DNA of 64,000 bases from an uncultured Bacteroidota bacterium (GTDB lineage Bacteria; Bacteroidota; Bacteroidia; Bacteroidales; WCHB1-69), in assembly GCA_902786595.1 (NCBI GenBank), contig CADADB010000004.1:105162-169161 (forward strand), in the 5' to 3' direction. Shown one piece after another: positions 7,255-63,240 of this stretch. The translations under genes were made by a program, and so were the position numbers. The notes beneath the pieces are model-generated. The model made no database searches. It saw only the letters and a program-made list of their open reading frames with translations, and was not told the origin of the DNA. Each line of letters begins with the position of its first letter. Position 1 is the first letter of the stretch.

Positions 7255-7536
7255 ATGAGCAAGAAGGAATTTATCTGTCCCGTTTGCGGATATGATCGTT
7301 TACCGGAGCCTCCGCACGACGAGCAAGGTTGCCCGACATACGTTATTTGTCCGTGCTGCGGTTTCGAGTTCGGTTTCGACGACGATTCTGAAGGACACAC
7401 CTATTCCACCTACCGGCAACATTGGATTGACCAAGGTTTTCCATTTTTCAATGCCAAGAAACGGCCTGCCAACTGGAATATTCGCACGATGAAACGGCAG
7501 CTGGAGAACACCGAGAACGGAAATCTCCATAATTGA
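7255..7536 (+). CDS. Small cysteine-rich protein (CPxCG...CPCCG), function unknown
   Basis: ICPVCGY and ICPCCGFEFGFDD zinc-ribbon-like motifs. Confidence 0.7.
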   Translation: MSKKEFICPVCGYDRLPEPPHDEQGCPTYVICPCCGFEFGFDDDSEGHTYSTYRQHWIDQGFPFFNAKKRPANWNIRTMKRQLENTENGNLHN

Positions 7537-14032: not shown

Positions 14033-14197
14033 TTCATCGTCACATTCATCGTTCATTTATCGCATCATCGTATCATCGCATCATCGTCATCCGTCCTATG
14101 CGCTATCGCTCACCCTATGCTAACATAGGTCGGGCTTTCAGCCCTTTTTGAATTAGATTTATATTCATTCTTAATTCTTAATTTTTCATTCTTAATT
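14033..14197. repeat. Composite of octamer (ATCATCGY) and heptamer (TTCTTAA) arrays with a GGGCTTTCAGCCC hairpin
   Basis: Read directly from the sequence; the octamer family recurs at 32596-32650. Confidence 0.65.
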
Positions 14198-15542: not shown

Positions 15543-15593
15543 CCCCCTAAACCTTTAACCTCCTAACCTCCTAACCTTCTAACCTTTTAACCC
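15540..15593. repeat. Octamer tandem repeat (TAACCTYY)n filling the intergenic gap
   Basis: TAACCCCC TAAACCTT TAACCTCC TAACCTCC TAACCTTC TAACCTTT TAACCC, starting at the stop codon. Confidence 0.75.
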
Positions 15594-21203: not shown

Positions 21204-21231
21204 GGTTATGGGTTATGGGTTATGGGTTATT
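21204..21231. repeat. Heptamer tandem repeat (GGTTATG)x4
   Basis: GGTTATG GGTTATG GGTTATG GGTTATT. Confidence 0.8.
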
Positions 21232-21466: not shown

Positions 21467-21499
21467 TAATTCATAATGCATAATTCATAATTCATAATT
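21467..21499. repeat. Heptamer tandem repeat (TAATTCA)n just after the tRNA
   Basis: TAATTCA TAATGCA TAATTCA TAATTCA TAATT. Confidence 0.75.
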
Positions 21500-24256: not shown

Positions 24257-25006
24257 ATGATCAGCAAAAACCGCATATCCCAAATCCGTAAGTTACACGC
24301 CAAGAAATTCCGCGATGAGAGCGGACTTTTTTTGGTGGAGGGTTATAAAAGCGTGGAGATGCTTTGCGCCTCCGATTTTGAAGTGGAGGAGATTTTCGCC
24401 ACTGAAAACGCTCTGACGGACAATGCTGCGTGGTTAAGTTCCCTCTCCCCCACCCTTGTCACCGCCGAGGAGATGTCGCGCATCAGCACTATGCAGACTC
24501 CGCCGGAACTGCTTGCAATTGCACTTCAGCGGCAATCCCTTCCCGACATCCCCACCGACCAGTCCATACTTGCTCTTGACCACATCTCGGACCCCGGCAA
24601 CCTCGGCACCATCATCCGTACTGCCGATTGGTTTGATATCCAGCATGTTGTATGTTCCCCCGACTGCGTGGAGTTCTACAACCCGAAAGTCATTCAGGCG
24701 ACTATGGGTTCCTTCACACACATACACGTACACCGTCGTTCACTTCCAGAATTTCTAAAACAGGAAAGCTGTCGTCGTCACATTCTCGGCACCTTCCTCG
24801 ATGGTGAAGATATCCGCCAGTTCAAATTCAACCGCAACGAAATCGTGGTCATCGGCAACGAGTCGAACGGCATCTCAGAGGAGGTGGCCAACGCCGTCAC
24901 GCACCGCATCACCATTCCCACCGCCGCCCAAGGCCGCGACACCGCCGAGTCCCTCAACGCTGCCATCGCCGCCGCCGTAGTGATGTACCGGATGGCGGGG
25001 TGTTAG
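24257..25006 (+). CDS. TrmH (SpoU) family RNA methyltransferase
   Basis: DPGNLGTIIRTA, IGNESNG, ESLNAA. Confidence 0.92.
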   Translation: MISKNRISQIRKLHAKKFRDESGLFLVEGYKSVEMLCASDFEVEEIFATENALTDNAAWLSSLSPTLVTAEEMSRISTMQTPPELLAIALQRQSLPDIPTDQSILALDHISDPGNLGTIIRTADWFDIQHVVCSPDCVEFYNPKVIQATMGSFTHIHVHRRSLPEFLKQESCRRHILGTFLDGEDIRQFKFNRNEIVVIGNESNGISEEVANAVTHRITIPTAAQGRDTAESLNAAIAAAVVMYRMAGC

Positions 25007-25125
25007 CTGTTAGCTTTTGGCTGTTAGCTTTTGGCTATTAACTATTGGCTATTGGCTGTTTTAGATAGCTATGGCTAGTAACTGTGTGCCTTTTAAGGAG
25101 GCTGACTATAACCATAACTATAACT
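25001..25125. repeat. Heptamer array (TRTTRGC, about 8 units) plus hexamer array (ACTATA)
   Basis: TGTTAGC TGTTAGC TTTTGGC TGTTAGC TTTTGGC TATTAAC TATTGGC TATTGGC; the first unit contains the stop codon. Confidence 0.8.
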
Positions 25126-29585: not shown

Positions 29586-32519
29586 TTATCGGCTCTCCAC
29601 AACCGTTTGTCGGCCGCAGAGATGCAAAAAATCGCAATTCTTGCAGTCATCGTCGTGCTCTGTCTGGGTGAAGGGGGTATCCGCATCAAAAATACGGATA
29701 AACAACTCGTTCAAACAATCCTTTAAAACAGATTTATACGTCAAGAGGTTGTCATCCTGAAAGATTTCCGCATTGAAGAGGTATTTAGGACGATTTTTGT
29801 TAACCTCACGAGTGCTAAGAATACATGCCTTCACTACAGACGCGGGTTCCTTAACAACATGCTCGTACATAAGCATATATATTGCAAGTTGGAAAAGTTT
29901 GTCGTATTTGCTGTCTTTAAAGACATTATCTATAACCTCTTTCTTGTCATCATCCTTCAAATCCGCATCCTTTTTCACGGTGAGACGAAGTTTGGATTCC
30001 TCCACCTTGCCAGTCTTGTAATCCAAAATCATGACCTCTCCATTCCCGTTCTTCTGCACACGGTCGATGCTGCCGGTCATTTTCACGGTGAAAGAAGGTT
30101 TTCCTTCTTCTGGAACAATCGTATAGTCCTGAATATCAATTTTCATCTCATTGGCGGTAATCCTCCACGGAGAGTTGAGAAGTTCCGTCTTTGCCTGTTC
30201 CAGATAGCTAACCACCGTTTCCTTGATGATGCGCCTGTTAATCAGCCAATACCCTTGGTTCAGTTCATTTCTGGACATAGACTCCCTGCCTTTCAGCTTG
30301 AGAATTTCGGCACAGACCAATTCGTCGCATTGATCGATATATTTCTGCAAAACAGAGGAATACAACTCCTTCTGACTCCCACATTTGATAATCTGATCGA
30401 AAGCAGCATTGAAAATTGCATGGATCACTGTACCCAACTCATTGGCTTCCAGGTGGTCGGACAAAGCCATCGGTTCCTGCACTTTCATCAAATAGCGAAG
30501 ACAGAACTTGAGAGGACAGAGGACGAACGTCTGCAAAGACGAGGCGGAAAAGGCGTGCTGGCGGAGTTTCTCAATCAGCTGGTCGCTTTTGGGAATGTTC
30601 AGAGCCGACCGAACCGGCAGCGAAAGTTCAAAATCAACCTTTTCATGCTGAATGTGGATAATGTCGGACAACTGCTGGTTCTTCACCTCATATTCCAATT
30701 GGGAAATAAAACGACTCTTTTCCGCCATGGTAGTGTCAGAGGAACTGTTGTAAATCAGCATCACATTTTCAGCCCTCTGCAACAGGCGGAAAAAGTGATA
30801 GGCATATACTTGATCTTGGTAAAGATAGTTGGGCAGCGCCTCCTTTCCATCGAACTTGTACTTGAAATCAAAGGGCAGCAAGGAATCGTAGGTGATACCA
30901 TGAGGAAGGACTCCCTCGTTGACGGAGAGCATGATGACATTCTTGAAGTCCATCATGCGGGTTTCCAACAATCCCATCACCTGCAAACCCGTGTCAGGAT
31001 CGCCCTTTATGGCAATGGAAAGATCGTTTGTCATCTTGGCCAAAGCAAATTTGACAAACGGGAAATCCACCTTTTCGTCCGGAGCAAACCAATGGTCAAA
31101 AAGAGATTGTAATTCTGACAACCTATGATTGATCTCCTGCCATAACTGCTTGTATTTCATTTCCGCAGTGACTGAATCCGCATACTGGCAGAAATGCATC
31201 AACAGGGCTGGGAAATGACGACCGATTTCTGATATCGGGCGGCATTCAAACAGCTCTTTGTGCGGAAGTTGCGAATATCGAATAACCGTAGGAAAATAAA
31301 TCGGAGTATTTGACTCGGTTCTAAGTAGCTCATGATTCCATAATTGCGCCAGCTGATCCCCGCTGAAGGAAAGTTCGGAATTATCATCCGCCGTAAGGGC
31401 GAAAGCAGATTCATAAACTGCCACCAAATGCTGCAAAAGCGAACATACCGGTGTGGCCGAGAAGGGAAATCCCATAGTTGCGTTAATATTCAGATCGTCA
31501 GGATTATAAGCCGACAAGAACGGTATCAGCAGCTCCTCGTCCGCCAGTACCACTGCCGTGTCTGACATATTCACCAGCCCATTTTCATCAATATGTTTCG
31601 CTTTGATTTTATCATTTTTGATGCGCTCTATTTCTTCTATCGCACAGTAGATTTGGCGCATATTCTGGGCCGTGGCCACAATCTTCACCTCTTTCGGAAC
31701 CGTGGCGTAATTATTCTCGGTAAATTCAAGCCGTTCAGGATTCAACTGCAGCTTTTCGCAATTGCGTTTGATGAAAAAGGATGGTTCCCGTTGGATTCGG
31801 GCCCCTGCGGACTGTTCCTCCAAATGGCAATAAAACGGGTCTATGTCAAAATAAAATTCCGTTTGGAAATGTTCCTGAAGATAACGCATAATCGTCAACT
31901 CGGCGGGTGAAAGCGCATAAAAACCGGCAAAGACCAGCCGCTTTAATGGGATTTTCTGTGCATACAGGGCGATGTTTTCGGCACAATCGCGATACATCAT
32001 GCCTTCGTATGCCTCACCGTTTTCTCTCAACTGCTTCACGAGCAATCCGTAAATCTCAGCAAGCAAATCATTGAATTTCAGTTTTTCCCGATCGCCTTCC
32101 GAAAGGGTTTCCTTGCTGAACGAAACTTCGAACTTTGCAGCATCGGCATATTCCTTCAGGATGTTCGGGACATCTTGCAACTGCATGTCCATATCGCTGA
32201 TATCCTTGAGAAACGTGCTCCCCCACGAGAGGATATTGTGCAGTTCGAAACGAGCTCCCGGAAAGTGGCAGGACACCGCGTGCAGGTTCAGCAACTGTGT
32301 TGTCTGGTCAATGACATGGAGCGGCGACAGCCAGTTAATAAAATCCTCCATCGGGAAAATCCGAGGCGCAAACATCGGGTTGTTGCCATTGGCCTCGTAC
32401 ATACCCTGCAGCAAGCGCCGCCGCGCACGACGGTTCGGCAAAATCACCGCGACATCGTGCAGGGGAATGCTGCGATTTTCAAGGAGTTTGTCGATAATAT
32501 GGTTCAGGAAAGGGGACAT
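29586..32519 (-). CDS. AddB/RexB-like protein with C-terminal PD-(D/E)XK nuclease
   Basis: VILPNRRA, GLQVMGLLETR, FSASSL...CP, GSIDRV, ILDYKTG, C-terminal CxxCxxxxxC. Confidence 0.87.
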   Translation of the reverse strand: MSPFLNHIIDKLLENRSIPLHDVAVILPNRRARRRLLQGMYEANGNNPMFAPRIFPMEDFINWLSPLHVIDQTTQLLNLHAVSCHFPGARFELHNILSWGSTFLKDISDMDMQLQDVPNILKEYADAAKFEVSFSKETLSEGDREKLKFNDLLAEIYGLLVKQLRENGEAYEGMMYRDCAENIALYAQKIPLKRLVFAGFYALSPAELTIMRYLQEHFQTEFYFDIDPFYCHLEEQSAGARIQREPSFFIKRNCEKLQLNPERLEFTENNYATVPKEVKIVATAQNMRQIYCAIEEIERIKNDKIKAKHIDENGLVNMSDTAVVLADEELLIPFLSAYNPDDLNINATMGFPFSATPVCSLLQHLVAVYESAFALTADDNSELSFSGDQLAQLWNHELLRTESNTPIYFPTVIRYSQLPHKELFECRPISEIGRHFPALLMHFCQYADSVTAEMKYKQLWQEINHRLSELQSLFDHWFAPDEKVDFPFVKFALAKMTNDLSIAIKGDPDTGLQVMGLLETRMMDFKNVIMLSVNEGVLPHGITYDSLLPFDFKYKFDGKEALPNYLYQDQVYAYHFFRLLQRAENVMLIYNSSSDTTMAEKSRFISQLEYEVKNQQLSDIIHIQHEKVDFELSLPVRSALNIPKSDQLIEKLRQHAFSASSLQTFVLCPLKFCLRYLMKVQEPMALSDHLEANELGTVIHAIFNAAFDQIIKCGSQKELYSSVLQKYIDQCDELVCAEILKLKGRESMSRNELNQGYWLINRRIIKETVVSYLEQAKTELLNSPWRITANEMKIDIQDYTIVPEEGKPSFTVKMTGSIDRVQKNGNGEVMILDYKTGKVEESKLRLTVKKDADLKDDDKKEVIDNVFKDSKYDKLFQLAIYMLMYEHVVKEPASVVKACILSTREVNKNRPKYLFNAEIFQDDNLLTYKSVLKDCLNELFIRIFDADTPFTQTEHDDDCKNCDFLHLCGRQTVVESR

Positions 32520-32650
32520 TGGCTGTTGGCTATTGGCTTTGGGCTATTAACTATAACAATAACTATGACTTTAAACTTAACTGTGGCTTTTAAACATCAT
32601 CGTCTCATCGCATCATCGTCTCATCGCATCATCGTCTCATCGTTTCATCG
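32519..32650. repeat. Composite intergenic array: heptamers, then hexamers, then a 16-mer x3
   Basis: TTGGCTG TTGGCTA TTGGCTT; AACTAT-like units; (CATCATCGTCTCATCG)x3. Confidence 0.8.
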
Positions 32651-33325
32651 TCACAGTTGCCAGTTAATCGGTGCCTTGCCCATTGACACCAGGATCTCGT
32701 TGGTGCGGGAGAAGTGGCGGCATCCGAAGAAACCGCGGGATGCGGAGAGCGGTGACGGGTGCGGAGCTGTGAGCACATAATGTTTGGACGTATCGATAAG
32801 ACGCTGTTTCTCAATGGCATAGTTACCCCAAAGCAGGAAGACAAGTCCTTCGCGTTGCTCCGAAAGCCGCTGGATGGCGCAGTCGGTAAAGGTTTCCCAT
32901 CCGTGACGCTGGTGCGAGCCCGCCTGATGTGCCCGTACGGTGAGTGTCGCGTTAAGCAGCAACACACCCTGGTTCGCCCACGCCTGCAGATTTCCGCTTC
33001 TTGGCGGGACAAAACCCACATCCGTGCTCAGCTCCTTGAAGATGTTCTGCAGCGACTTCGGAATCGGCACGCCATCCTGCACCGAAAAACACAAACCATG
33101 CGCCTGCCCTTCCCCATGATAGGGATCCTGTCCGATAATCACGACCTTCACCTTATCGAACGGTGTGGAATTGAACGCATTGAAAATCTTCGGTCCCGGC
33201 GGAAAGACAAGATAGTGTTTTTTCTCTTCCACCAAAAAGGCCTTCAGTTCCGCAAAATACGGAGCCTGGAATTGGTCCCAGAGGACTTTTTTCCAGGATT
33301 CGTCGATGTTTGGGTTTATAGCCAT
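32651..33325 (-). CDS. ung: Uracil-DNA glycosylase
   Basis: GQDPYH, GVLLLN, HPSPLS. Confidence 0.97.
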
Positions 33326-52990: not shown

Positions 52991-53446
52991 ATGAAATACA
53001 CGCAATTAGGAAACACCGGCATTGAGGTCAGCCGCATCTGCGTCGGCTGCATGTCGTACGGGAAGCCCTCGGAGGACTTCCACCTGTGGACTCTCAACCA
53101 GGAGGAGACCACGAAGATGATCAAGCACGCCCTCGACCTCGGGGTGAACTTCTTCGACACCGCCAACGGCTATTCGCACGGCACCAGCGAGGAGTTCTTA
53201 GGCAAAGCGCTGAAAGACCTCGGTGTCGCCCGTGTGGCGGAGGTGGCGGAGCGTCTCGGTGTGACGATGACGGAAGTCGCGTTGGCCTGGCTGCTGAAGC
53301 GGGGGGTCGCCGCACCCATCGTGGGAGCCACGAAAGTGCCGCACTTCAATGACGCGGTCCGCGCTCTGGATCTCGACCTCAGCGACGAAGACGCTGCCTA
53401 CCTCGAAGAGCCCTACAAGGCGCACGAAGTGGTGGGAGCGCTGTGA
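52991..53446 (+). pseudogene. Aldo/keto reductase with a large in-frame internal deletion
   Basis: N-terminal part (FFDTANGY..SEEFLGKAL) joins at GVAR directly to the C-terminal part (VAEVAER...VALAWL...PIVGA); 151 aa versus about 320 for the family. Confidence 0.8.
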
Positions 53447-53549
53447 GCCTTCGGCTGTTGGTAAGCTTCGCTGTTAGTTAGCTTCGCTGTTGATTAGCCT
53501 GCGGCTGTTAATGACTTCGTGTTAACATGAAATAATCAACACGAAGTCA
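53446..53549. repeat. Mini-hairpin array A (7-nt unit alternating with palindromes; 5 units plus one inverted unit)
   Basis: AGCCTTCGGCT GTTGGTA AGCTTCGCT GTTAGTT AGCTTCGCT GTTGATT AGCCTGCGGCT GTTAATG ACTTCGT GTTAACA ... AATCAAC ACGAAGT. Confidence 0.85.
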
Positions 53550-53602
53550 TCAGTCTTTCTGTTTCTTTCAAGAAAAGTAGTGTTTTTGAAGTATTCTTTG
53601 CC

Positions 53603-54118
53603 TTAGTCGAGCACCAGACTGGGGGCGCTGTAGGCGCGGGCGGCGAGCTCCTGGTTGAGCATATAGAGACTGCGGGGGTCGCTGCCGAAGAGTTCCATCT
53701 TCGAGATCATATCGCGGGCGTTAGTCTCCTCTTCGCCTTGCTCTTTGACGAACCAGTCGAGGAACTGCATAGTGCGGAAATCCTTGACCTTGTTGGCGGC
53801 ATCATAGATAGTGTGGATCGAGGCGGTCACATACTCCTCGTGTTCCAGACCGGCCTTCAGCACGTCCATATCTTTCTTGAACACCTTGTCGGGTTTGGCG
53901 ATGGCATCCAGCGTTACGGGGCAGTCGTTGTTCTGCATGTAGCGGTAGAACAGCATGGCGTGGTCGCGCTCCTCCTGGGCCTGAATCATATACCAGTTAG
54001 CGAAACCGTTCAGACCGCGGCGCTCGAAATAGTTGGACATATCAAGATAGAGATAGGCGCTGTAAAGCTCCTTGTTGATTTGATCGTTAAGCAGATCGGC
54101 TACTTTTTTGTTAAGCAT
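53603..54118 (-). CDS. Non-heme ferritin
   Basis: QINKELYSAYLY, EERDHA, FLDWFVKEQGEEE ferroxidase residues. Confidence 0.93.
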   Translation of the reverse strand: MLNKKVADLLNDQINKELYSAYLYLDMSNYFERRGLNGFANWYMIQAQEERDHAMLFYRYMQNNDCPVTLDAIAKPDKVFKKDMDVLKAGLEHEEYVTASIHTIYDAANKVKDFRTMQFLDWFVKEQGEEETNARDMISKMELFGSDPRSLYMLNQELAARAYSAPSLVLD

Positions 54119-54327
54119 AATTATTGTTATTTATAAATTGTTGTCGAAAAGACGGATTAATGACGTTCCTGTTTTTTCGGTTGCAAAAATACGACTATTT
54201 TCTTACATGGCAAAAAAATATTTTGCAAAAGACTATGGCAGCCGGATTCATCTCGTCGATTTCGGATTTTTCTATTTTATTCAAGAAAAGTTGTATCTTT
54301 GCAGCGTCTTTTGAATAAAATGAGATA

Positions 54328-54948
54328 ATGACCTACTTGGAGTTCAGGGAGCAGTGGCACGGGATGGGATGTTTCAACGTTTATCAGATCCGTGCGTGGG
54401 AGCCGGGATTCGACCGAAGCAACCTCACACGCTGGGTGAAGCGGGGCTATTTGTCGAAACTGCGGCAGGACTGGTATGCCTTCAGCGACCTGAAGGGCAC
54501 TCCCGAGATGGCGCGTTATATTGCGCAGCGCATTTACACGCCGTCGTACATCAGCCTGCACTACGCCCTGTCGTTCTACGGCATCATTCCCGAAGCGGTG
54601 ACCGACATCACCTGCGTCACCTCCAACCGCACCACGGCCTACCATAACGACTTCGGCCGTTTCAGCTACCAGACCGTCAAGCCCGATCTTTTCTTCGGCT
54701 TCCGCCAGATGCCCGTTTCGCCGCAGGGCAGCTACCTGCTGGCTTTACCCGAAAAGGCCATCCTCGACCTGCTGTACCTTTACCCGCAATACAACACCGC
54801 CGAGACCTTGTTGGAGCTGCGCTTCGACGAATGGTGGATGCGGGAGGAACTGGACAAGGATCGACTGGCGGCTTACGCGACGCAAAGCGGCAACAAGTCG
54901 CTGCAAGAACGAATACAATTGTTGATGAAAACCTATACAGATGATTGA
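54328..54948 (+). CDS. AbiEi-like type IV TA antitoxin
   Basis: wHTH-like N-terminus, PSYISLHYALSFYGIIPEAV, PEKAILDLLY. Confidence 0.85.
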   Translation: MTYLEFREQWHGMGCFNVYQIRAWEPGFDRSNLTRWVKRGYLSKLRQDWYAFSDLKGTPEMARYIAQRIYTPSYISLHYALSFYGIIPEAVTDITCVTSNRTTAYHNDFGRFSYQTVKPDLFFGFRQMPVSPQGSYLLALPEKAILDLLYLYPQYNTAETLLELRFDEWWMREELDKDRLAAYATQSGNKSLQERIQLLMKTYTDD

Positions 54949-55729
54949 TTTACAGTCCATATTGGCCTACTATCCGCCGCAACTTGCGACGAACGCCGCA
55001 TTTCACAAGCACATCTTGAAGGAATACATTGAACTGTTGGCGCTGGAGCACCTTTCGCAATCGCCCTACGCGCCCAAATTGGTGTTCATCGGCGGGACCA
55101 ACCTGCGCCTTGTCCTCGGATTAGACCGTTTCTCCGAGGATTTGGATTTCGATTGCAAGCGACTGACGGCTGACGAGTTTGTCTCGATGACCGATGCGCT
55201 GGTCGATCACTTGCGGCTCAACGGTTTGCGCGTGGAGTTGCGCGACAAGGAGAATCCCCGGCTGACGGCCTTCCGTCGCAACATCTACTTCCCGGAACTG
55301 CTGTTCGACCTAAATCTCACCGGTCATCGGGAGGAAAGGTTTTTGATGAAGATCGAAGCCCAGGACCAAGGGGTGGACTACACTCCGCAAACGGCGATGG
55401 TCAGTCGCAACGGCTTCTTTTTTCCCGTGACGGTTCCGGCCAAGAGTACCATGCTCTCCATGAAGCTTGCGGCACTGCTGGCCCGGGCCAAAGGACGCGA
55501 CTTCTACGACACCATCTTCCTTTGGCAACAAACCGACCCCGACTACGGCTTCCTTCACCAACGATGTGGAATCGACACCCCGGAAATGTTGAAGAAAGCA
55601 CTATCCGACAAACTTGACACCACTGACCTTGAACTAAAGCAGAAAGACTTCGAGCATCTGCTCTTCAACCCTTCGCGCAGCACACAGATACTGCATTTCA
55701 AGCAATTTATAGATGGCAAATTAAAATAA
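54941..55729 (+). CDS. AbiEii-like nucleotidyltransferase toxin
   Basis: FIGGTNLR...RFSEDLDF, KLAALL.R.KGRDFYD; overlaps the antitoxin gene. Confidence 0.9.
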   Translation: MIDLQSILAYYPPQLATNAAFHKHILKEYIELLALEHLSQSPYAPKLVFIGGTNLRLVLGLDRFSEDLDFDCKRLTADEFVSMTDALVDHLRLNGLRVELRDKENPRLTAFRRNIYFPELLFDLNLTGHREERFLMKIEAQDQGVDYTPQTAMVSRNGFFFPVTVPAKSTMLSMKLAALLARAKGRDFYDTIFLWQQTDPDYGFLHQRCGIDTPEMLKKALSDKLDTTDLELKQKDFEHLLFNPSRSTQILHFKQFIDGKLK

Positions 55730-55758
55730 CGTTTCCAACGCACAAACATTCAAACTTT

Positions 55759-56151
55759 ATGATTAATCAAAACGAACGATTATATTATCGTGGTACTGTT
55801 TTTGAGGTAACCTACGAGTGGGAAGGAAGGATTGACACTCACCAATCCATTTTGGTAGAAACACACGATGAAGGTTTTGTCTTTGTAGTAGTCCAAATTA
55901 ACGAATATCACGCCGGATGTGTCGACGGCTATATTCACCTTCAGTTTGAATACGTTAAGGCGGTAACTCAATCTTTTCTTCAACAAGAATTGGTTAGACA
56001 ATGTTATAGCAACATTCTGAAGTTTCAAATCATTACAGAAAATCATAGTGAAACAATAAAGGAGTTTTTGAAATCCCAAAAAGAATGGGGTTTTTGGGAA
56101 GATCCTCTTCAACCTTACAATCCAAATAAAACCACTTCTCCCACGGATTAA
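55759..56151 (+). CDS. Hypothetical AT-rich protein, loosely immunity-protein-like
   Basis: Clean ORF with A-rich start context; RG...YHAG...AVT..FL pattern. Confidence 0.55.
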   Translation: MINQNERLYYRGTVFEVTYEWEGRIDTHQSILVETHDEGFVFVVVQINEYHAGCVDGYIHLQFEYVKAVTQSFLQQELVRQCYSNILKFQIITENHSETIKEFLKSQKEWGFWEDPLQPYNPNKTTSPTD

Positions 56152-56239
56152 TGCAGAAATATAGTCTGTGGAGTTCTGCGCGTTCTGCGGGCAAATAACT
56201 GTCCCATATTTTTGCACAAGAATTAAAGCGATATAAAAA

Positions 56240-56770
56240 ATGGACAAAAACGAACTCTTAGCAGCCATGTCGGACAGTTATGCGAAACTGAACGAGCAAA
56301 TCGGCAAAATGACAGATGACGAACTGAACGCGACTTTCCAGTTCGCCAATGACCAAAAAAAATGCGGTGCGCGATGGATTTACGACCAGTGCGCCCGCGA
56401 CCTCCTCATACACCTTTATGAATGGCAGGTGCTGATGCGCGAATTTGTGAACAACATCCGCGAAGGCCACCAAAAGGACTATCTGCCCGACGAATATCGC
56501 AAAAACTACCACGAGATGGACAAGATGCTGGTGGAAAAACACCAGAACACCTCGTTTCAGGAGGCACAGCGGCTTCTGGAGCAGACCCATGACGAAATGA
56601 TTCAGCTGGCAGACAGCTTTTCCGAGGAGGAACTTTTCATCAAAGGCCACTACAAGTGCACCTACACCACCGATATGGCCGCTTACTTCACGAGTGTCAC
56701 CACAAGTCCCTACAAGCAGGCCCTGAAGATGTTGAAGACGCACCAAAAGAAGCTGAAAACTTCGTGTTGA
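56240..56770 (+). CDS. ClbS/DfsB family (DUF1706) four-helix bundle protein
   Basis: KNELL...W..D...RDLLIHLYEW, FSEEELF, YF.S.T.SPY. Confidence 0.85.
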   Translation: MDKNELLAAMSDSYAKLNEQIGKMTDDELNATFQFANDQKKCGARWIYDQCARDLLIHLYEWQVLMREFVNNIREGHQKDYLPDEYRKNYHEMDKMLVEKHQNTSFQEAQRLLEQTHDEMIQLADSFSEEELFIKGHYKCTYTTDMAAYFTSVTTSPYKQALKMLKTHQKKLKTSC

Positions 56771-56808
56771 TGAGCCTGCGGCTGTTGGTTAGCCTTCGGC
56801 TGTTACGA
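56759..56808. repeat. Mini-hairpin array B
   Basis: ACTTCGT GTTGATG AGCCTGCGGCT GTTGGTT AGCCTTCGGCT GTT; supplies the last codons and TGA of the upstream gene. Confidence 0.8.
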
Positions 56809-56825
56809 TAGTCTTCCAAATTCTC

Positions 56826-57929
56826 TTATTTCTTTACAAACTCCACACGGCGGTTCTTGGCACGGCCTTCCTCTGTGGTGTTGGGGGCGATGGGGGAGTG
56901 TGATCCTTTGCCCACGGCCGAGAGACGTGATTTGTCGATACCCAGTTTCACCAGGGCATCCACGATGGCTTCTGCACGCTTCTGGCTCAGCGGATTGTTT
57001 ATGGCGTCGGTTCCGGTATTGTCGCAGTGACCCTGCACCTCGAAGGTGAGGTCGGCGTGCTCTTGCATCAGCTTGGCCACGCGGTTGATTTCAACGGTGG
57101 ATTCCGGTTTGAGGTCGGCCTTGCCGCTTTCGAAGGTGATGGCGTAGGTCACAATCTTGCCGTCGGTGGTCAAACGGTCGTAGAGCGGCACGGCGCCCTG
57201 GGCGATGCGCACGTTGCTCAACCCCGTGTAGCGATAGTACGCTCCGCTGGCGAAGAAGAGGTAGCCCGGAGCCTTCATCGCCGGCACGTTGATCATGCGC
57301 ACGCCATTCACATAGCCTTTGAAAGCCCGCTTGTTGAACGAAAAGGCGAAGTGGTTCCACTCGCCGGCAACCACCGGATTGTCCTTCTCCAAATAGTCGC
57401 TGGTGCCCGGGGTCAGCCCCAACATCTTTTCTCCACTCGACTGGCTGCTCCCGTCCGGTTTCAGCAGAGACCACGTCAAGTTGCAGGACCCGTCTTCCCT
57501 GTACCAAAAACGCACATAGCTTGAAGCGTTATAGTAGCTTTCGTCGCCGCGGTCGCCGAAATAAAGGTTCATTTCGAGCAATGTCTCCTCCTCGTCCCCC
57601 GTGTTCACCGGGGCCACGTAGAGGTCGAACTCCACCGTGAACACCTCAGGCAGCCAATCCCATTTCTCTTTCATCAGCGGCATCACCTGTCCCAGGCCGT
57701 TGTCGGTGAACGCCAGCACATTGCGACCCTTCTGCTGCGCAGTCTCCGCATAGCCGTCCAGCAAGTCCCATCGCAGCGAGAATTCCCCGAGTTTCTCGTG
57801 TTCAAAGTTGTCGTCGAATATGATTTCGTCGCCGGGAACAAAATCGCTCTTCGCGTAGTTGTTCTCCTGAGCATTCAGTGTCATTCCGGCAAGCATTAAC
57901 AGCACAGCCACAAATAATAATTTCTTCAT
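56826..57929 (-). CDS. OmpA family peptidoglycan-binding exported protein
   Basis: Signal peptide; DFVPGDEIIF; GHCD...N..LSQKRA, GRAKNRRVEF. Confidence 0.9.
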   Translation of the reverse strand: MKKLLFVAVLLMLAGMTLNAQENNYAKSDFVPGDEIIFDDNFEHEKLGEFSLRWDLLDGYAETAQQKGRNVLAFTDNGLGQVMPLMKEKWDWLPEVFTVEFDLYVAPVNTGDEEETLLEMNLYFGDRGDESYYNASSYVRFWYREDGSCNLTWSLLKPDGSSQSSGEKMLGLTPGTSDYLEKDNPVVAGEWNHFAFSFNKRAFKGYVNGVRMINVPAMKAPGYLFFASGAYYRYTGLSNVRIAQGAVPLYDRLTTDGKIVTYAITFESGKADLKPESTVEINRVAKLMQEHADLTFEVQGHCDNTGTDAINNPLSQKRAEAIVDALVKLGIDKSRLSAVGKGSHSPIAPNTTEEGRAKNRRVEFVKK

Positions 57930-58134
57930 GATGATAGCTTTTCAATGATTACAAAGTGCAAAAATACAAACTTTTTTGAAACAATGACGATAATCTGTAA
58001 GATGGACAGGGCTCACGCATAAACTTGGGACTTTGGAACACGGACACCGGCATCGACACCCGCGGCGACTGGGAACACACGATGGAATAAAAAAATCCCT
58101 ATTTTTGCAAGAAAAAAAGAGAGTGTCTCACACT

Positions 58135-59460
58135 ATGAGGAAAATACGGATAATCAGTTTTATAACATTGCTTATGGCGCACGCCTCCGCTCAGATTGAC
58201 CTCCACAGCCACGCCATCACGCAGGGCTACCTCGACTACATCAAGGCCAACGGTGCCGAGATGGACGAGGGGTTTCCCATCCCGGGCTGGGACGTGGAGA
58301 AGCACATCGCCTTCATGGACAAGGCCGGCATCCAGACTTCGGTGCTGACGATGCCCGCGCCGCAACCCTTCTTCGGCGACGCGGAGGCTTCGGCGGCGGT
58401 GTGCCGCAAATACAACGAAGAATGCGCCGCGCTGAAAGCTCGCTATCCGGGGCGTTTTATGTTCTGCGCCGCGCTGCCTCTGCCTGATGTGCCGCACGCC
58501 TTGGAGGAGGCACGCTACGCCTTGGAGGTGCTGGGTGCCGACGGCATCAAGTTGGCCACCAACAGCTACGGACAGTACCTCGGCGACCCCGCCTTGGACA
58601 CCCTTATGGCATACCTCGACGCACAAAAGGCCGTCGTCATCCTGCATCCGCACAAACCCTCGGCGGTGAACGCGCAGTTGATCGCCGACGTGCCGTTGGC
58701 AAGCTACGAATATCTGGCCGAGACCTCTCGTGCGGTGCTTAACATGGTGGCCCACAACGTGTTGGTGCGTTATCCAAACCTGAAGGTAGTGGTGCCACAC
58801 TGCGGTTCGTTCCTGCCCAACGCCCTGCCGCGCTTCCGTTCGCTGCTGCCCGTGATGGTGAAGCAGGGCATTATGCAGCCTGTGGATGTCGATGCCAACC
58901 TGTCGCGGCTCTACTACGACCTGGCCGGCGCGCCCACCGATGACATCCTCGACGCGCTCCTCACCATCACTACGCCCGACCATATCCTCTACGGTAGCGA
59001 CTACCCCTATGTGGCCGAGCCGGTGCTCATCAGCGGCAAGCAGGCCCTGGAGGGGCGTCTCGCCTCGCACGGACTGAACTCGCAGGACATCTTCACCGAC
59101 AACGCCCGCAGGCTGTTCGGCGAGAACGTGCCCCTGCGGCAATACGGCGAGCGCATCGTCCGCCTCGCCGAAATTGAGGTGGTGCCGGAGTATCTGGAAG
59201 AGTATCTGGCTTACGCCAAGGAAGTTGGGGTGACCTCAGTGAAGGTGGAGCCCGGCGTGCTGACATTATTTTCGATGCAGACCAAAGAAGACCCCTGCAA
59301 AATCTACATCCTCGAAATCTACGCCGACAAAGAGGCCTACCAGAGCCATCTCCAGACCGCCCATTTCAAGAAGTACAAAGAGGGCACCGCCCAAATGGTG
59401 AAGTCGCTGAAGCTGATCGACACCAAGCCGATGGTGGGGATGGAGATGCTGGGACATTGA
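58135..59460 (+). CDS. Amidohydrolase_2 fused to an antibiotic-biosynthesis-monooxygenase (ABM) domain
   Basis: IDLHSH, LHPH, PHCG, YGSDYP; C-terminal IVRLAEIEV...EPGV...LEIYAD..AY.SH..T.HF. Confidence 0.87.
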   Translation: MRKIRIISFITLLMAHASAQIDLHSHAITQGYLDYIKANGAEMDEGFPIPGWDVEKHIAFMDKAGIQTSVLTMPAPQPFFGDAEASAAVCRKYNEECAALKARYPGRFMFCAALPLPDVPHALEEARYALEVLGADGIKLATNSYGQYLGDPALDTLMAYLDAQKAVVILHPHKPSAVNAQLIADVPLASYEYLAETSRAVLNMVAHNVLVRYPNLKVVVPHCGSFLPNALPRFRSLLPVMVKQGIMQPVDVDANLSRLYYDLAGAPTDDILDALLTITTPDHILYGSDYPYVAEPVLISGKQALEGRLASHGLNSQDIFTDNARRLFGENVPLRQYGERIVRLAEIEVVPEYLEEYLAYAKEVGVTSVKVEPGVLTLFSMQTKEDPCKIYILEIYADKEAYQSHLQTAHFKKYKEGTAQMVKSLKLIDTKPMVGMEMLGH

Positions 59461-59484
59461 AAAAACAAACAAATCAAGAGCAAT

Positions 59485-60618
59485 ATGAAACACCCCCTTC
59501 TGATTTTCGCCGCCGCCATCGTGTTAATGGTTGGCTGCAACAAGACAACAAAAACAGACAAAGATATGAACACTTTGACATTCAACGAGAAACAGGCGGC
59601 GGCGATGTCGGCCATCGCCTGCTACGAGGCGCAGGGCGACCAAACGTCGTTAGCCACCGCCATCAACGAGGGTTTCGACGCGGGGCTTACCGCCAACCAG
59701 ATCAAGGAGGCCCTCTCGCAACTCTACGCCTACACGGGATTTCCACGTTCACTCAACGCATTAGGCACCCTGCAGAAAGTGATGAAGCAACGCGGTGAGG
59801 TGGAGATCGGCACCGAATCCACTCCCCTACCCTCCAACTACGATGCCCTGAAACAAGGCACCGAAGTGCAAACCAAACTGTCGGGACAGCCCTTCGACTA
59901 CAAGTTCTGTCCCGCCGAGGACTACTACCTCAAGGCGCACCTCTTCGGCGACATCTTCGCCCGCGACCTGCTCACCCACGCCGACCGCGAGTTATTGACT
60001 GTCAGCGCCTTGGCTGGTCTGGAGGGCGTGGAACCCCAGCTGGCCGCCCACGTGCGCGGTGCACGGAACATGGGTCTGACCGACGCCCAGCTGCTCGCCA
60101 TCCCGAAGGTGTTGCAGGAGCGTGTGGGCAAAATGGAGGCGCACCGTGTCGCCGTGGCCATTCAGCAGTTGGGCATCAGCGATTCAGTTAACGACCACCT
60201 CGCCAGCAATATATACGTCCAGGACTACGTTGATTTGAAGTCGAATTGGCGGCGGGGCGAGCCGAACACCGCCTACGCGCAGTACTTCATCGGCAACAGC
60301 TACCTTGCGCCCTACGGCGGTGGCATGGTCAACGTGTCCTTCGAGCCGGGCTGCCGCAACAACTGGCACATCCACCACAAGCAGGTGCAGGTGCTGGTGT
60401 GTGTCTATGGCCGTGGCTGGTACCAGGAATGGGGCAAACCCGCTGTCAAGTTGGAGCCCGGCGTGATCATCGAGATCCCCGAAGGCGTGAAGCACTGGCA
60501 CGGCGCCGCCAAAGACAGCTGGATGCAGCACCTCACCTACCACAAGGACGTGCAGGAAGGGGCCAGCAACGAATGGCTGGAACCTGTCACCGATGATCAA
60601 TACAGCGCTTTGAAATAA
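59485..60618 (+). CDS. Carboxymuconolactone decarboxylase-like domains fused to a cupin, with lipoprotein signal
   Basis: QLYAYTGFPRSLNAL, HLFGDIF, FEPGCRNNWHIH, HWHGA. Confidence 0.88.
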   Translation: MKHPLLIFAAAIVLMVGCNKTTKTDKDMNTLTFNEKQAAAMSAIACYEAQGDQTSLATAINEGFDAGLTANQIKEALSQLYAYTGFPRSLNALGTLQKVMKQRGEVEIGTESTPLPSNYDALKQGTEVQTKLSGQPFDYKFCPAEDYYLKAHLFGDIFARDLLTHADRELLTVSALAGLEGVEPQLAAHVRGARNMGLTDAQLLAIPKVLQERVGKMEAHRVAVAIQQLGISDSVNDHLASNIYVQDYVDLKSNWRRGEPNTAYAQYFIGNSYLAPYGGGMVNVSFEPGCRNNWHIHHKQVQVLVCVYGRGWYQEWGKPAVKLEPGVIIEIPEGVKHWHGAAKDSWMQHLTYHKDVQEGASNEWLEPVTDDQYSALK

Positions 60619-60660
60619 CCAACATTCACTCATCAACATTTACTCACCAACATTCACTTA
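60619..60660. repeat. 14-mer x3 tandem repeat filling an intra-operon gap
   Basis: CCAACATTCACTCA TCAACATTTACTCA CCAACATTCACTTA. Confidence 0.75.
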
Positions 60661-60665
60661 AAGAT

Positions 60666-61283
60666 ATGAAAGCACTTCTTATCAACGGCAGTCCCAACGC
60701 GAAGGGCTGCACCTTCACCGCCCTGAGCCTTGTGGCGGAAGAATTACAGAAAAACGGCGTGGAAACCGAGATCGTTCACGTGGGGCACAAGAATATCCAC
60801 GGCTGCATCAGCTGCGGGAAATGCTATGAAACAGGCAAATGCGTCTTTGACGACATCGTGAACGAAGTCGCCCCGAAATTCGAGCAAGCCGACGCGCTGA
60901 TCATCGGCTCGCCGGTCTATTACGCGGGCATCGCTGGCACGATGAAATCCTTCCTCGACCGACTCTTCTTCAGCACGCACTTCCGGAAATGCATGAAGGT
61001 GGGCGCAGCGGTCTGCTCGGCCCGACGCGCCGGCACCACCGCCACCTTCGACCAGCTGAACAAGTACTTCACCATCAGTGAGATGCCCGTCGCGAGCACC
61101 CGCTACTGGAACATGGTGCATGGTCACAGTGCCGAAGACGTGATGCAGGATGCGGAGGGCGTGCAGTGCATGCGCATCCTCGGCCGCAACATCGCCTTCC
61201 TCGTCAAGGCCATCGCTGCGGAGAAGGAGCGCAACGGTCTGCCCGAAGCGGAGGAAGCGGTATTCACGAATTTTATCCGATAA
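60666..61283 (+). CDS. Iron-sulfur flavoprotein / NADPH-dependent FMN reductase family
   Basis: INGSP, GCISCGKC...C, GSPVYY. Confidence 0.9.
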   Translation: MKALLINGSPNAKGCTFTALSLVAEELQKNGVETEIVHVGHKNIHGCISCGKCYETGKCVFDDIVNEVAPKFEQADALIIGSPVYYAGIAGTMKSFLDRLFFSTHFRKCMKVGAAVCSARRAGTTATFDQLNKYFTISEMPVASTRYWNMVHGHSAEDVMQDAEGVQCMRILGRNIAFLVKAIAAEKERNGLPEAEEAVFTNFIR

Positions 61284-61287
61284 CGCC

Positions 61288-61830
61288 ATGAACGACAAAC
61301 CCACAGGAAAAGACTATGTCGGCAGCGACGACCTTTATGCCGACGTGCAGCGCACCATGCGGCTCTGCGCCGAGATGAACAGCGGCTACCACACGGAGGC
61401 CGAGGTGCGCGACTGTCTGCGCGAGATCACCCGCAGCGAGGTGCCCGACACCGTGCGCGTTTTCACCCCGCTGAATATCAACTACGGTCCGGGCGTGCGC
61501 TTCGGCAACGACTGCTTCCTCAACTTCGGCTGCACGTTGTTAGCCATCGGCGGCATCACCATCGAGGATGACGTTTTCATCGGTCCGCATTGCGTGCTGG
61601 CCACCGAATACCATCCCGAAGGTCCTGCCAAGCGCCACACGTTGCTCACCAAGCCCATAGTCGTTAAACGCAACGCCTGGCTCGGCGCCGACGTGAAGGT
61701 GTTGGCAGGTGTCACCATCGGCGAGAACGCCATCGTGGCCGCCGGCAGCGTGGTTACCAAGGACGTGCCCGACAATATGGTGGTGGCAGGGAGTCCGGCC
61801 AAAGTGATAAGGGAGATAAAACAATATTAA
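61288..61830 (+). CDS. Sugar O-acetyltransferase (second paralog)
   Basis: GGITIEDDVFIGP, WLGA.V.VLAGVTIGENA, VTKDVP. Confidence 0.88.
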   Translation: MNDKPTGKDYVGSDDLYADVQRTMRLCAEMNSGYHTEAEVRDCLREITRSEVPDTVRVFTPLNINYGPGVRFGNDCFLNFGCTLLAIGGITIEDDVFIGPHCVLATEYHPEGPAKRHTLLTKPIVVKRNAWLGADVKVLAGVTIGENAIVAAGSVVTKDVPDNMVVAGSPAKVIREIKQY

Positions 61831-61832
61831 CA

Positions 61833-62942
61833 ATGAAAAAACTCATCCTCCTCGCCCTTGCGGCACTGACACTGGCTGCCTGCGGCAACAAGCAAGAAAC
61901 AAAAAACAACGAGAATATGAAACAGGAATTGACCCTCACGCAGGAGTGAGACAAGGTATTCCCCCTCAGCGACAAAGTAAACCACCGCAAGGTGACGTTT
62001 GAAACACAGTACGGCCTGACCTTGGCCGCCGACCTTTACACGCCCGTAGGGGCGAATAATGATTCGCCCACAGGTCTCCCTGCTTTAGCCGTGAGCGGAC
62101 CTTTCGGTGCCGTCAAGGAACAAAGCAGTGGCCTCTACGCTATGAAGATGGCGGAGCGCGGCTTCGTAGCACTGGCCTTCGACCCGTCCTATACCGGTGA
62201 AAGCAGCGGCGAGCCCCGTCGCACGGCCTCGCCCGACATCAACACCGAGGACTTCATGGCTGCCGTTGATTTCCTGTCGCAGTTAGAGAATGTGGATCCC
62301 GAGCGCATCGGCATCATCGGTATCTGCGGCTGGGGTGGCATCGCCCTGAATGCCGCCGCTGCCGACCCGCGCATCAAGGCTACCGTGGCCAGCACGATGT
62401 ACGACATGACCCGCATCAGCGGCAACGGCTATTACGACAGTGACAACAACGAGGAAGCCCGTCACGCTGCCCGCGAAGCAATGGGCAAACAGCGTCTCGC
62501 CGACCCGATGGCGATGGCCGGCGGCGTCATCGACCCGCTGCCTGATGAGGTTCCGCAGTTTGTGAAGGACTACCACGCCTATTACAAAACCCCGCGCGGC
62601 TACCACGTGCGCAGCGGCAACAGCAACGACGGTTGGCGCATCATCGGCACACAGGCATACGCCAACGCACGTTTTCTCTACTACATCAACGAAATCCGCT
62701 CCGCTGTCCTCGTGATGCACGGCGAGAAGGCCCACAGCCGCTACTTCGGAGAGGCCGCCTACCATTATATGGTGGATGGCAAGGCCGAGGGTTACAACTT
62801 CATCGGCAAACCGAATCCCAATCCTGACAACAAGCAGCTGCTCATCATCCCCGGCGCCACCCACTGCGACCTCTACGACGGCGGCGATGGCAACTACATC
62901 CCGTGGGACACGCTGGCGGAGTTTTTCGGGAAGAATATGTAG
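61833..62942 (+). pseudogene. Lipoprotein alpha/beta hydrolase interrupted by an in-frame TGA at 61947
   Basis: MKKLILLALAALTLAAC...LTLTQE*DKVFPLSDKVNHRKVTF continues in frame to GPFGAVKEQ, GICGWGG, HCDLYD. Confidence 0.8.
62046..62069. repeat. GTAG REP-like palindrome inside the hydrolase coding region
   Basis: GTAG-GGGCGAAT-AATG-ATTCGCCC, encoding VGANNDSP. Confidence 0.6.
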
Positions 62943-63014
62943 CTTCGCTGTTGGTTACTTCGTGTTGGTTACTTCGTGTTGGTTAGCTTCGCTGTTGATT
63001 ACTTCGTGTTAACA
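62941..63014. repeat. Mini-hairpin array C
   Basis: AGCTTCGCT GTTGGTT ACTTCGT GTTGGTT ACTTCGT GTTGGTT AGCTTCGCT GTTGATT ACTTCGT GTTAACA. Confidence 0.85.
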
Positions 63015-63054
63015 TTCGCGACCGCATTAACAAAACACCGTTCCGGACGCGAAC

Positions 63055-63240
63055 CAGCCCGTTAGGGCTGAAGGGCTCGGTAGGGATGGGGCGGCGTTTT
63101 GGTTTTTCCGCACGCCGTAGGTGTGCGGGGATTATGGAAAATGGTGTGGGATTCGATGTATGCCCGCAGACCTAACGGCCTGCGAAAACACGTACCGCAC
63201 ACGCCGATGCTACCGAGCCCGGCAGACCTGACGGCCTGCC
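63055..63240. mobile_element. Nested four-hairpin non-autonomous element (REPIN/MITE-like)
   Basis: GGGCTCGGTAG / CTACCGAGCCC inverted repeats; two CCGT(T)AGG-centred hairpins on the left mirrored by two CCTRACGG-centred hairpins on the right. Confidence 0.6.

Follow-up and report, generated by a model that had tools for sequence, protein, structure and literature searches.

What are the repeat arrays that overlap gene stop codons in the accessory region of a rumen Bacteroidales genome, and do they belong to a dedicated genetic system or to the simple-sequence DNA of the genome at large? This question is raised by a stretch of 64,000 nucleotides (nt), hereafter the window (GenBank assembly GCA_902786595.1, contig CADADB010000004.1, positions 105,162 to 169,161), in which three arrays, designated here A, B and C, combine a heptamer of the form GTTRRTN with short palindromic words. 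The organism is an uncultured rumen Bacteroidales represented by a metagenome-assembled genome of 2.84 Mb in 40 contigs (G000), the arrays being carried by contig C4. As developed below, they are most likely hypervariable intergenic repeats of the long simple-sequence or minisatellite type and not the sites of a dedicated mobile or recombination system; the class of repeat is already known but its hairpin-bearing variant is new. Tandem repeats were called with TRF (Tandem Repeats Finder), open reading frames (ORFs), whose calls are rough, were annotated with Pfam, and the survey covered 55 genomes of the genus together with an outgroup of 97 genomes from 21 other genera of the family.

Anatomy of the arrays and of their family

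Arrays A, B and C all lie on the plus strand and obey a single grammar, as described in the initial annotation and borne out both by the sequence and by TRF, which detects the three of them: the heptamer GTTRRTN alternates with ACTTCGT, AGCTTCGCT, AGCCTTCGGCT or AGCCTGCGGCT, each of these words being a palindrome with a 3-nt loop that reads C-GAA-G or C-GCA-G on the minus strand. Each array also overlaps the stop codon of a plus-strand gene, namely TGA at 53444-53446, TGA at 56768-56770 and TAG at 62940-62942. Array A (53446-53549) takes as its first base the last base of the stop of an aldo/keto-reductase (AKR) fragment ORF (52991-53446). Its left arm (53446-53520), G/T-rich on the sense strand, is made of five palindromic words of 11, 9, 9, 11 and 7 nt and reads AGCCTTCGGCT GTTGGTA AGCTTCGCT GTTAGTT AGCTTCGCT GTTGATT AGCCTGCGGCT GTTAATG ACTTCGT up to the self-complementary hexamer GTTAAC (53521-53526), the invariant centre of two-arm arrays throughout the genus. 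After this centre come ATGAAATA and a single inverted unit, ATCAACACGAAGT; in terms of units, the right arm (53527-53549, plus strand) consists of ATGAAAT, a T-A variant of the 7-nt word, and one inverted 14-nt unit, which together with the last left unit are predicted to form a 13-bp hairpin around GTTAAC.

The other two arrays have a left arm only. Array B (56759-56808) reads ACTTCGT GTTGATG AGCCTGCGGCT GTTGGTT AGCCTTCGGCT GTTAC; its first unit encodes the final codons and the TGA, located within GTTGAT, of a DUF1706 (DinB-like) gene, and the array stops at GTTAC, 18 nt short of the end of a convergent OmpA-family gene. Array C (62941-63014) comprises five word-plus-GTTRRT units, with AGCTTCGCT and ACTTCGT as words and GTTGGTT or GTTGATT as heptamers, and ends with the centre GTTAAC (63008-63013); the opening AG of its first word, AGCTTCGCT, is shared with the TAG stop of an alpha/beta-hydrolase gene. 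Arrays A and C do end in the same ACTTCGTGTTAACAT, and of the two A alone adds the inverted unit, in agreement with the initial annotation. Such a concentration is far from random, since CTTCGNNGTTRRT occurs four times in the window for 0.18 expected, a count reached by none of 100 shuffles.

Across the whole genome, multi-unit clusters of word plus GTTRRT are all found within C4:158607-172884, and this 14-kb region holds three further sites of the family, which had been overlooked initially, as had many ordinary heptamer arrays in the window. Between a CMD/cupin stop and an FMN-reductase start lies a degenerate array of three units (ACCAACA TTCACTC; 60618-60658, plus strand), reduced to a right arm here and in the relative G009, where the relatives G057 and G011 have full two-arm arrays. 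Just past the end of the window, a right-arm-only array (L128:403-486, i.e. C4:169402-169485) extends as far as the ATG of a YdeI/OmdA-like gene and, further on, a second AKR fragment ORF reads into a two-arm array (L128:3861-3936, i.e. C4:172860-172935). Considering the family as a whole, the full element thus follows the order gene stop, left arm, last left unit with ACTTCGT, GTTAAC, right arm, then a promoter-like stretch or the next start codon, with either arm sometimes absent. The left arm is made of 16- and 18-nt units, that is a 9- or 11-nt palindrome plus GTTRRTN, often alternating in a 34-nt superperiod, and the right arm of inverted 14-nt units in which AYYAAC is combined with ACGAAGT or ATGAAAT.

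Regarding the words themselves, 404 of them were collected between the heptamer cores of 64 distinct arrays from the genus, and 367 (91%), of 13 types, are perfect palindromes with a 3-nt loop; the other 37 fall into 24 types, mostly singletons, AGTGAAT and AGTAAAT together making up 12. Three stem lengths occur (AC..GT, AGC..GCT and AGCC..GGCT) and, in the 7-nt word, a C-G pair is replaced by T-A in 42 instances (ATTTCAT), with the T.G intermediate found twice; the compensatory stem variation anticipated initially is therefore present, palindromes being kept through changes of stem length as well as through one double change of base pair. On the minus strand, the loops are GAA (322), GCA (28), GTA (13), AAA (3) and GGA (1). 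Seven types of loop variant differ at the middle base only and two at an outer base, where equal rates would predict one third at the middle (binomial p=0.008, with types that are not independent). The palindromy of the words is real, and selection as well as template-switch correction of quasi-palindromes are both possible sources of it.

These loops match the C-GNA-G rule of a class of DNA mini-hairpins, as first proposed for this locus from the sequence: on the minus strand the 9-nt word is AGCGAAGCT, which contains d(GCGAAGC) exactly, the 11-nt words contain CCGAAGG or CCGCAGG, and the variation in GAA, GCA, GTA and GGA loops bears on the N of GNA. According to the accessible part of Hirao's review, only GNA triloops form the d(GCGNAGC) mini-hairpin, with stability decreasing in the order A>G>C>T, and this hairpin stalls polymerases (PMC13037366). 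The natural examples given there are single sites at replication origins or promoters, with no tandem arrays mentioned in that part of the text (PMC13037366), whereas the hairpins of the present arrays are tandem and predicted. By nearest-neighbour folding (ViennaRNA with DNA parameters), which includes no special stability term for GNA loops, excess stability appears only where arms are inverted: array A reaches z-scores of -3.0/-7.1 as RNA and -4.5/-4.3 as DNA owing to its central 13-bp hairpin, and for array B the values range from -1.2 to -4.0 according to the strand and to whether RNA or DNA is folded.

Beyond the window, a DNA search of 40 relatives found counterparts in 23 of the 24 genomes from the same genus, where the matches covered single genes whose order varied; array A was matched in many places. 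The pattern CTTCGCTGTTRRTNAGC is found in 23 of the 55 genus genomes, with up to 54 matches in one, and is absent from the other 32; outside the genus it is limited to single matches in 2 of 97 genomes, which is the level of the reversed-pattern control. The related loci all come from uncultured Bacteroidales of ruminant guts, and the sequencing runs that contain the stretch are bovine or sheep gut metagenomes. The proposal of a repeat family holds well beyond this locus, in 23 genomes. No factor encoded elsewhere that would recognise it was found, which does not argue against the existence of one. G057 has five more arrays of the family away from the island, at another locus whose genes bear no relation to those of the island and where the dialect differs slightly; the scan used a pattern lacking the 9-nt word, which makes unit counts there too low.

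At a given site, the number of units varies considerably between species, from about 5 to 32, bearing in mind that such counts rest on metagenome assemblies, which are liable to collapse repeats. Behind the AKR fragment, left/right units number 5/2 in the own genome, 12/6 and 20/5 in relatives, and 32/7 in G057, where the upstream gene is a longer AKR-type ORF; behind the DUF1706 gene, they number 2, 10, 11/4 and 8/5 depending on the genome. In G057, which is well assembled, the island arrays count 32+7, 5+3, 8+5, 29+5, 11+8, 20+6, 21 and 17 left and right units. The flanking DNA, compared with G009, is 95-97% identical. In relatives, the long arrays form regular 34-nt superperiods whose variants are shared locally, and the statement that slippage could not explain the arrays, made initially because word order differs between A, B and C, is contradicted by these superperiods and by the range of unit numbers at one site.

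Heptamer arrays across the genome and the genus

The heptamer of arrays A to C is not an isolated oddity of the island. In the own genome, TRF returns 947 rows at period 7 vs. 149 and 197 at periods 6 and 8, with 236 and 110 more at periods 14 and 21, where a genome simulated from a first-order Markov model gives 51, 8 and 1 rows at periods 7, 14 and 21, respectively. After merging, 901 heptamer arrays cover 34 kb and represent 163 canonical units; 747 of them lie between genes, 127 within genes and 27 at contig ends, the rough ORF calls making about 90% of the genome coding. In the window, ordinary heptamer arrays are found for instance at 14046-14091, 15540-15593, 21204-21230, 21467-21499, 25001-25060 and 32518-32652. 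An array begins no more than 25 nt from the stop in 432 of 2307 ORFs, with a modal offset of 0/+1. In other words, the enrichment at stop codons that was expected from the three arrays does exist, but as a trait shared by some 900 heptamer arrays of the genome rather than as a peculiarity of A, B and C.

The phase of these arrays is informative as to their origin. In units 2-5, read in the phase of the stop codon, T has a frequency of 0.45-0.57 at the first position of the triplet and purines 0.65-0.77 and 0.67-0.74 at the next two, position 7 of the unit being T-rich; this in-phase repetition of T-R-R indicates that the stop codon is the first unit of the array. GTTRRT, parsed as G-T-TRR-T with TGG, TAG, TGA or TAA as core, carries the same T-R-R core as the heptamer arrays of the genome. 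Among in-phase triplets, TGG is seen 63 times for 55.9 expected when the purine positions are taken as independent; since it is not depleted, T-R-R looks inherited from a duplicated stop followed by transitions, and not selected as stops. The units being rich in stops, any ORF that enters an array ends within one or two units, which explains the anchoring of arrays A to C at stop codons.

The hairpin family follows the abundance of these ordinary arrays. Heptamer rows per 100 kb amount to 33 in the own genome, 31 in G057 and 3 in G004, which also belongs to the genus; outside it, one genome reaches 15 and the others have 0-9, as compared to 1.8 in the Markov simulation. Of the 12 genomes sampled, 5 yielded less than 15 kb of sequence (short contig C1), and little weight is to be given to their values. 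With (TAACCNN)x3 as a marker, the 55 genus genomes split into 17 heptamer-rich and 38 heptamer-poor ones, and at least two matches to the hairpin (TTCG-array) pattern are present in 12 of the 17 vs. 4 of the 38 (Spearman 0.50, n=55, the significance of which is overstated because relatives are not independent). The genomes with most matches (G057 with 54, G009 with 40 and G013 with 31) are all three heptamer-rich, which suggests that the hairpin family reflects one genome-wide propensity to expansion and not a dedicated system.

The orientation of the arrays obeys a rule. Genome-wide, 75% of the arrays located after a stop have more G than C on the sense strand, and 84% of those ending 0-15 nt before a start have more C than G, with 8% G on the mRNA strand. 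The hairpin family conforms to it with its G/T-rich left arm and its A/C-rich right arm. In Bacteroidetes, translation initiation prefers a G-poor and unstructured leader, and the rule fits with tolerance of, or selection for, such a leader ahead of the next gene. It explains two-arm arrays as inverted copies of one unit and, among adjacent heptamer arrays, 28 of 201 pairs are inverted, vs. 4% of random pairs. Local dialects of ordinary heptamer words are weak at best, a word being shared in 11% of pairs within 2 kb vs. 8% of random pairs.

Probable slippage from stop codons and its rivals

Taken together, we are inclined, with a confidence slightly better than even, to regard the arrays as spacer arrays seeded at stop codons and generated by slippage, in which hairpin units probably speed up expansion and whose orientation answers to the requirements of the transcripts on either side. 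Short non-coding stretches beginning with a stop codon would be duplicated tandemly in a 7-nt register, a process that would build much of the intergenic spacer DNA in this lineage. The hairpin family would be a composite form of it, with a 14-nt base unit associating the heptamer GTTRRTN, and its stop-like T-R-R core, to the palindromic heptamer ACTTCGT; symmetric insertions may have lengthened the palindrome to 9 and 11 nt, hence units of 16 and 18 nt. On the complementary strand, the C-GNA-G mini-hairpins could extrude whenever the DNA is single-stranded in the course of replication, causing pausing and slippage, and such hairpin-promoted slippage would explain why arrays reach great length and why they do so only in genomes already rich in heptamers. 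The arrays would then be transcribed as 3' untranslated regions or intercistronic spacers, where the right arm may provide the next gene with an A/C-rich, G-poor leader and the innermost units may form the 13-bp hairpin around GTTAAC.

Several observations weigh against this explanation. The complex word set AGCCTTCGGCT plus GTTGGT is present at at least six sites here, as well as at the second locus of G057 among unrelated genes, so that units must be copied between sites and local slippage alone is insufficient. Expansion has gone furthest in the 16- and 18-nt units, which do not keep to the 7-nt register. The invariant GTTAAC centre and the conserved innermost units suggest constraint, and the orientation rule and the maintenance of palindromes could mean function instead of mere tolerance. 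Loss of mismatch repair was considered as a cause of the propensity of the lineage to slip and rejected, MutL and MutS1 being intact in three heptamer-rich and two heptamer-poor genomes. Under the same folding parameters as above, array C shows no excess stability, with z-scores between +1.1 and -1.3. Besides, unit counts depend on assembly, where repeats may collapse, and one array of G057 contains a run of N (G057:C10, ~7400-7460 of reverse-complemented L026), which illustrates how repeats break or gap assemblies. Slippage leaves in particular the spread of the complex unit set to several loci and the constancy of GTTAAC and the innermost units unexplained; for this reason a function comparable to that of repetitive extragenic palindromes (REPs) and bacterial interspersed mosaic elements (BIMEs) keeps some probability, and a role in recombination a lower one.

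REPs and BIMEs are intergenic palindromes found past gene ends, in clusters of alternating orientation and with tandem amplification, and are thought to act as single-stranded hairpins, all of which is shared by the arrays; BIMEs, too, sit between genes after stop codons. That the arrays are functional structured cis-elements of this kind, selected as RNA or DNA structures with copy number being secondary, is in our opinion unlikely but deserves to be weighed, the candidate roles being protection of mRNA 3' ends, attenuation or termination between cistrons, and binding of a nucleoid or RNA-binding protein encoded elsewhere. It would account for palindromes kept across three stem lengths and a C-G to T-A change, for the GNA-specific loop variation, for the conserved GTTAAC centre with its 13-bp hairpin and the strong predicted folding of array A, and for the dispersal of the family to a second locus and its strand-orientation rule. 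A contig from an RNA library (X17) spans array B (56567-56870) and other RNA-library contigs cover arrays, which is compatible with transcription as well as with carry-over of DNA. It is harder to reconcile with a number of units varying from about 5 to 32 per site, with arms missing in B, C and the 60618 site, with direct-repeat-only arrays devoid of predicted excess structure, and with the 32 genus genomes that do without the pattern. A terminator consensus scan found none at the arrays, the 13-bp central hairpin of array A being followed by a T-rich stretch, and a search of Rfam returned no family matching them. Unlike REPs, the units bear no GTAG or CGTC tag, their stems are only 2-4 bp and no cognate REP-associated tyrosine transposase (RAYT) accompanies them. 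As for RAYT/Y1 enzymes as the factor acting on the arrays, this candidate was discarded: the three RAYT-type genes are each flanked by their own GC-rich REPs and not by array units, and the C24-type gene, whose contig in G057 and G009 also bears arrays, has homologues in 45 of 55 genus genomes irrespective of array content, i.e. without co-variation. Somewhat more doubtful still is an undescribed, lineage-specific repeat-building activity, acting on single-stranded DNA in a 7-nt register, the gene for which would be found in the 17 heptamer-rich genomes and be missing or altered in the 38 poor ones. With the GNA mini-hairpins folded out, units of 14, 16 and 18 nt would present the same linear heptamer GTTRRTN and composite arrays would be copied just like heptamer repeats; the activity would also be responsible for starting arrays at stops, for spreading unit sets between loci and for building intergenic spacers.

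Integron attC sites, which are imperfect palindromes located 3' of small co-oriented accessory genes and endowed with a GTTRR-type core, offer another parallel, and we take GTTRRT to resemble the integron core site GTTRRRY. The arrays could on this basis be attC-like sites of an integron-like array of detoxification and toxin-antitoxin cassettes, folded as single strands and crossing over at GTTAAC or GTTRRT, an interpretation that we hold to be very improbable. The genes of the island are indeed mostly small and co-oriented and their content varies between relatives; moreover, one element is seemingly split, a left arm plus GTTAACAT ending at 63014 and GTCAACAT plus a right arm lying 1.2 kb further on, with variable content in between. 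Yet the sequences of this split element (also scanned with the pattern lacking the 9-nt word) diverge ~18 nt past GTTAAC and not at GTTAAC. An attC site has the layout R''-L''...L'-R' once per cassette, with RYYYAAC on the side of the ORF and GTTRRRY away from it, whereas the arrays are tandem, lack an integrase and present the reverse order, GTTRRT units first and AYYAAC units last in the direction of the ORF. Searching the own genome for PF00589 revealed only three tyrosine recombinases, on contigs C22, C6 and C26, none being on the array contig, which ends 1.1 kb after the last array and beyond which a further gene may lie; there is none either on the array contigs of G057 and G009. The idea that the arrays are the end of a mobile element finds no support here, RAYT genes having REPs of their own. 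As to their position at boundaries of gene blocks where cassettes would be gained or lost, the region is variable in gene content but the arrays are not enriched at synteny breakpoints: when loci are compared in pairs, the neighbours are different 75% of the time at 37 array junctions vs. 71% at 163 others (p=0.53), a result obtained on 15 array-bearing loci with the complete unit pattern, rough ORF calls and family clustering. An earlier pairwise run, scanned without the 9-nt word, agrees, and a first classification of breakpoints was uninformative as nearly all junctions scored as variable.

Selection of the units for fail-safe termination, which would place stops in three frames behind genes and catch readthrough or frameshifted ribosomes, deserves hardly any credence. 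Stops in all three frames occur within 24 nt of the gene stop in 37% of stop-adjacent arrays vs. 7% of control genes, and units do carry TAA, TAG or TGA cores; against this, TGG is as frequent in phase as independent purine positions predict, GTTGGT ranks first among the cores of the family (194/468) and the antisense strand also attains 24%. Finally, that the arrays would be an artefact of metagenome assembly is scarcely tenable. Short-read assemblers do perform poorly on tandem repeats, as with the N run in G057, and contigs elsewhere join different arrays, but many genomes, assembled independently in separate studies and drawn from different host animals, show the same architecture at the same gene junctions. 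The joints between arrays A, B, C and 60658 seen in contigs of other samples possibly arose through the repeats themselves, and no conclusion was drawn from them.

Neighbouring genes, related repeats and significance

The genes of the island, as annotated with Pfam, are mostly small and co-oriented and comprise acetyltransferases, AKRs, a cupin, a DinB-like gene, an AbiEii pair, a ferritin and an OmpA-family gene, with redox and detoxification functions among them; their content differs between relatives and the G+C content of the island is slightly raised (0.54-0.57 vs. 0.49). Two truncated AKR ORFs (52991-53446 and L128:3218-3916), one an N-terminal and the other a C-terminal fragment, each precede an array, and these gene ends may have been replaced or cut by the arrays. 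At 54328-55729, an unannotated ORF of 206 amino acids overlaps the start of an AbiEii-family nucleotidyltransferase gene, and the pair, which recurs in varied neighbourhoods in relatives, is probably a type IV toxin-antitoxin system.

Close to the arrays, three further features were recorded. An inverted pair of GC-rich, GCTCGGTAG-tagged REP-like palindromes adjoins array C at ~63045-63236 (C4:168236 plus, 168379 minus); members of this REP family, of which the genome has 58, lie on either side of a RAYT-type Y1 gene of contig C1 (around G000:C1:270036-270509), and the family accounts for a weak miRNA-like match of Rfam at 63057-63236. In right arms, the T-A variant of the 7-nt word yields repeated ATGAAATAA strings (L128:403-450 and 53527-53535), each of which amounts to a mini-ORF (start-Lys-stop) within the leader of the gene that follows; these mini-ORFs may be a coincidence of the palindrome. 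After right arms comes a conserved stretch, TTCAAGAAAAGT.GT.TTTTG, in the window (53550-53600) as in relatives (e.g. L013:8650-8720), which resembles the Bacteroidetes -7 promoter motif TAnnTTTG; in the own genome, it precedes the minus-strand ferritin gene and no plus-strand gene.

The initial annotation saw in the arrays its best candidate for an undescribed system. Rfam has no match for them, but heptameric repeats at stop codons are known in Xanthomonas and Nostoc. The intergenic heptameric repeats of these bacteria, as far as the consulted part of the report goes, lie within 50 bp of coding-strand stops or overlap them, most of them are transcribed, and their length differs from one close relative to another (Rehm et al., 2015; PMC4692102), and polymerase slippage has been proposed as their cause (PMC4692102). 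PMC4679880 and PMC4692102 both cite Mrazek et al. (2007) for an excess of heptanucleotide repeats, and the hypothesis that the 7-nt unit reflects a polymerase footprint is attributed to Mrazek 2007 in the excerpt available (PMC4692102). The likeness to what is described there is close, with tandem 7-nt units that are intergenic, located near or over stops, variable between relatives and sporadic across lineages; the features of heptameric intergenic simple-sequence repeats, namely tandem 7-nt excess, position at stop codons and variation in copy number, are all found here, the 16- and 18-nt units leaving the register. Unlike in Xanthomonas and Nostoc, where the accessible description is of one dominant G-rich, quadruplex-capable unit, 163 canonical heptamers coexist here, and in the hairpin family the heptamer alternates with palindromic words of 7, 9 or 11 nt in two inverted arms around GTTAAC. 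The TAACTGA direct repeats of marine Beggiatoaceae, Cyanobacteria and five Bacteroidetes, which have stops in all frames according to the part of the article consulted (MacGregor, 2015; PMC4679880), are also stop-bearing heptamers, intergenic, sometimes placed over the upstream stop and fixed in orientation relative to flanking genes; as described in that part, they differ by having a single unit, mostly 2-6 copies, a position directly upstream of starts and no palindromic words. Unlike in clustered regularly interspaced short palindromic repeats (CRISPR), the units abut, with no unique spacers.

What is new is thus the scale and word diversity of the phenomenon in a genus of rumen Bacteroidales, its in-phase seeding by stop codons, and the alternation, in two inverted arms around GTTAAC, of a heptamer with mini-hairpins of the d(GCGAAGC) type that come in three stem lengths; literature searches, made outside subscription journals and supplements, returned no account of a family combining hairpins and heptamers in this way, nor of any heptamer arrays from rumen Bacteroidales. 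If the arrays are merely products of slippage, they constitute an unusual example of a known phenomenon and not a new system. In practical terms, they break short-read assemblies of rumen Bacteroidales, set the ends of many ORFs and may serve as strain markers. The coexistence within one genus of heptamer-rich and heptamer-poor species (17 vs. 38 of 55) provides a natural contrast in which to seek the variant of replication or repair behind the 7-nt bias. The arrays are natural tandem runs, up to ~30 units long, of the very stable d(GCGAAGC) hairpin, and as such could show whether it folds in the cell and what role it plays in the expansion of repeats.

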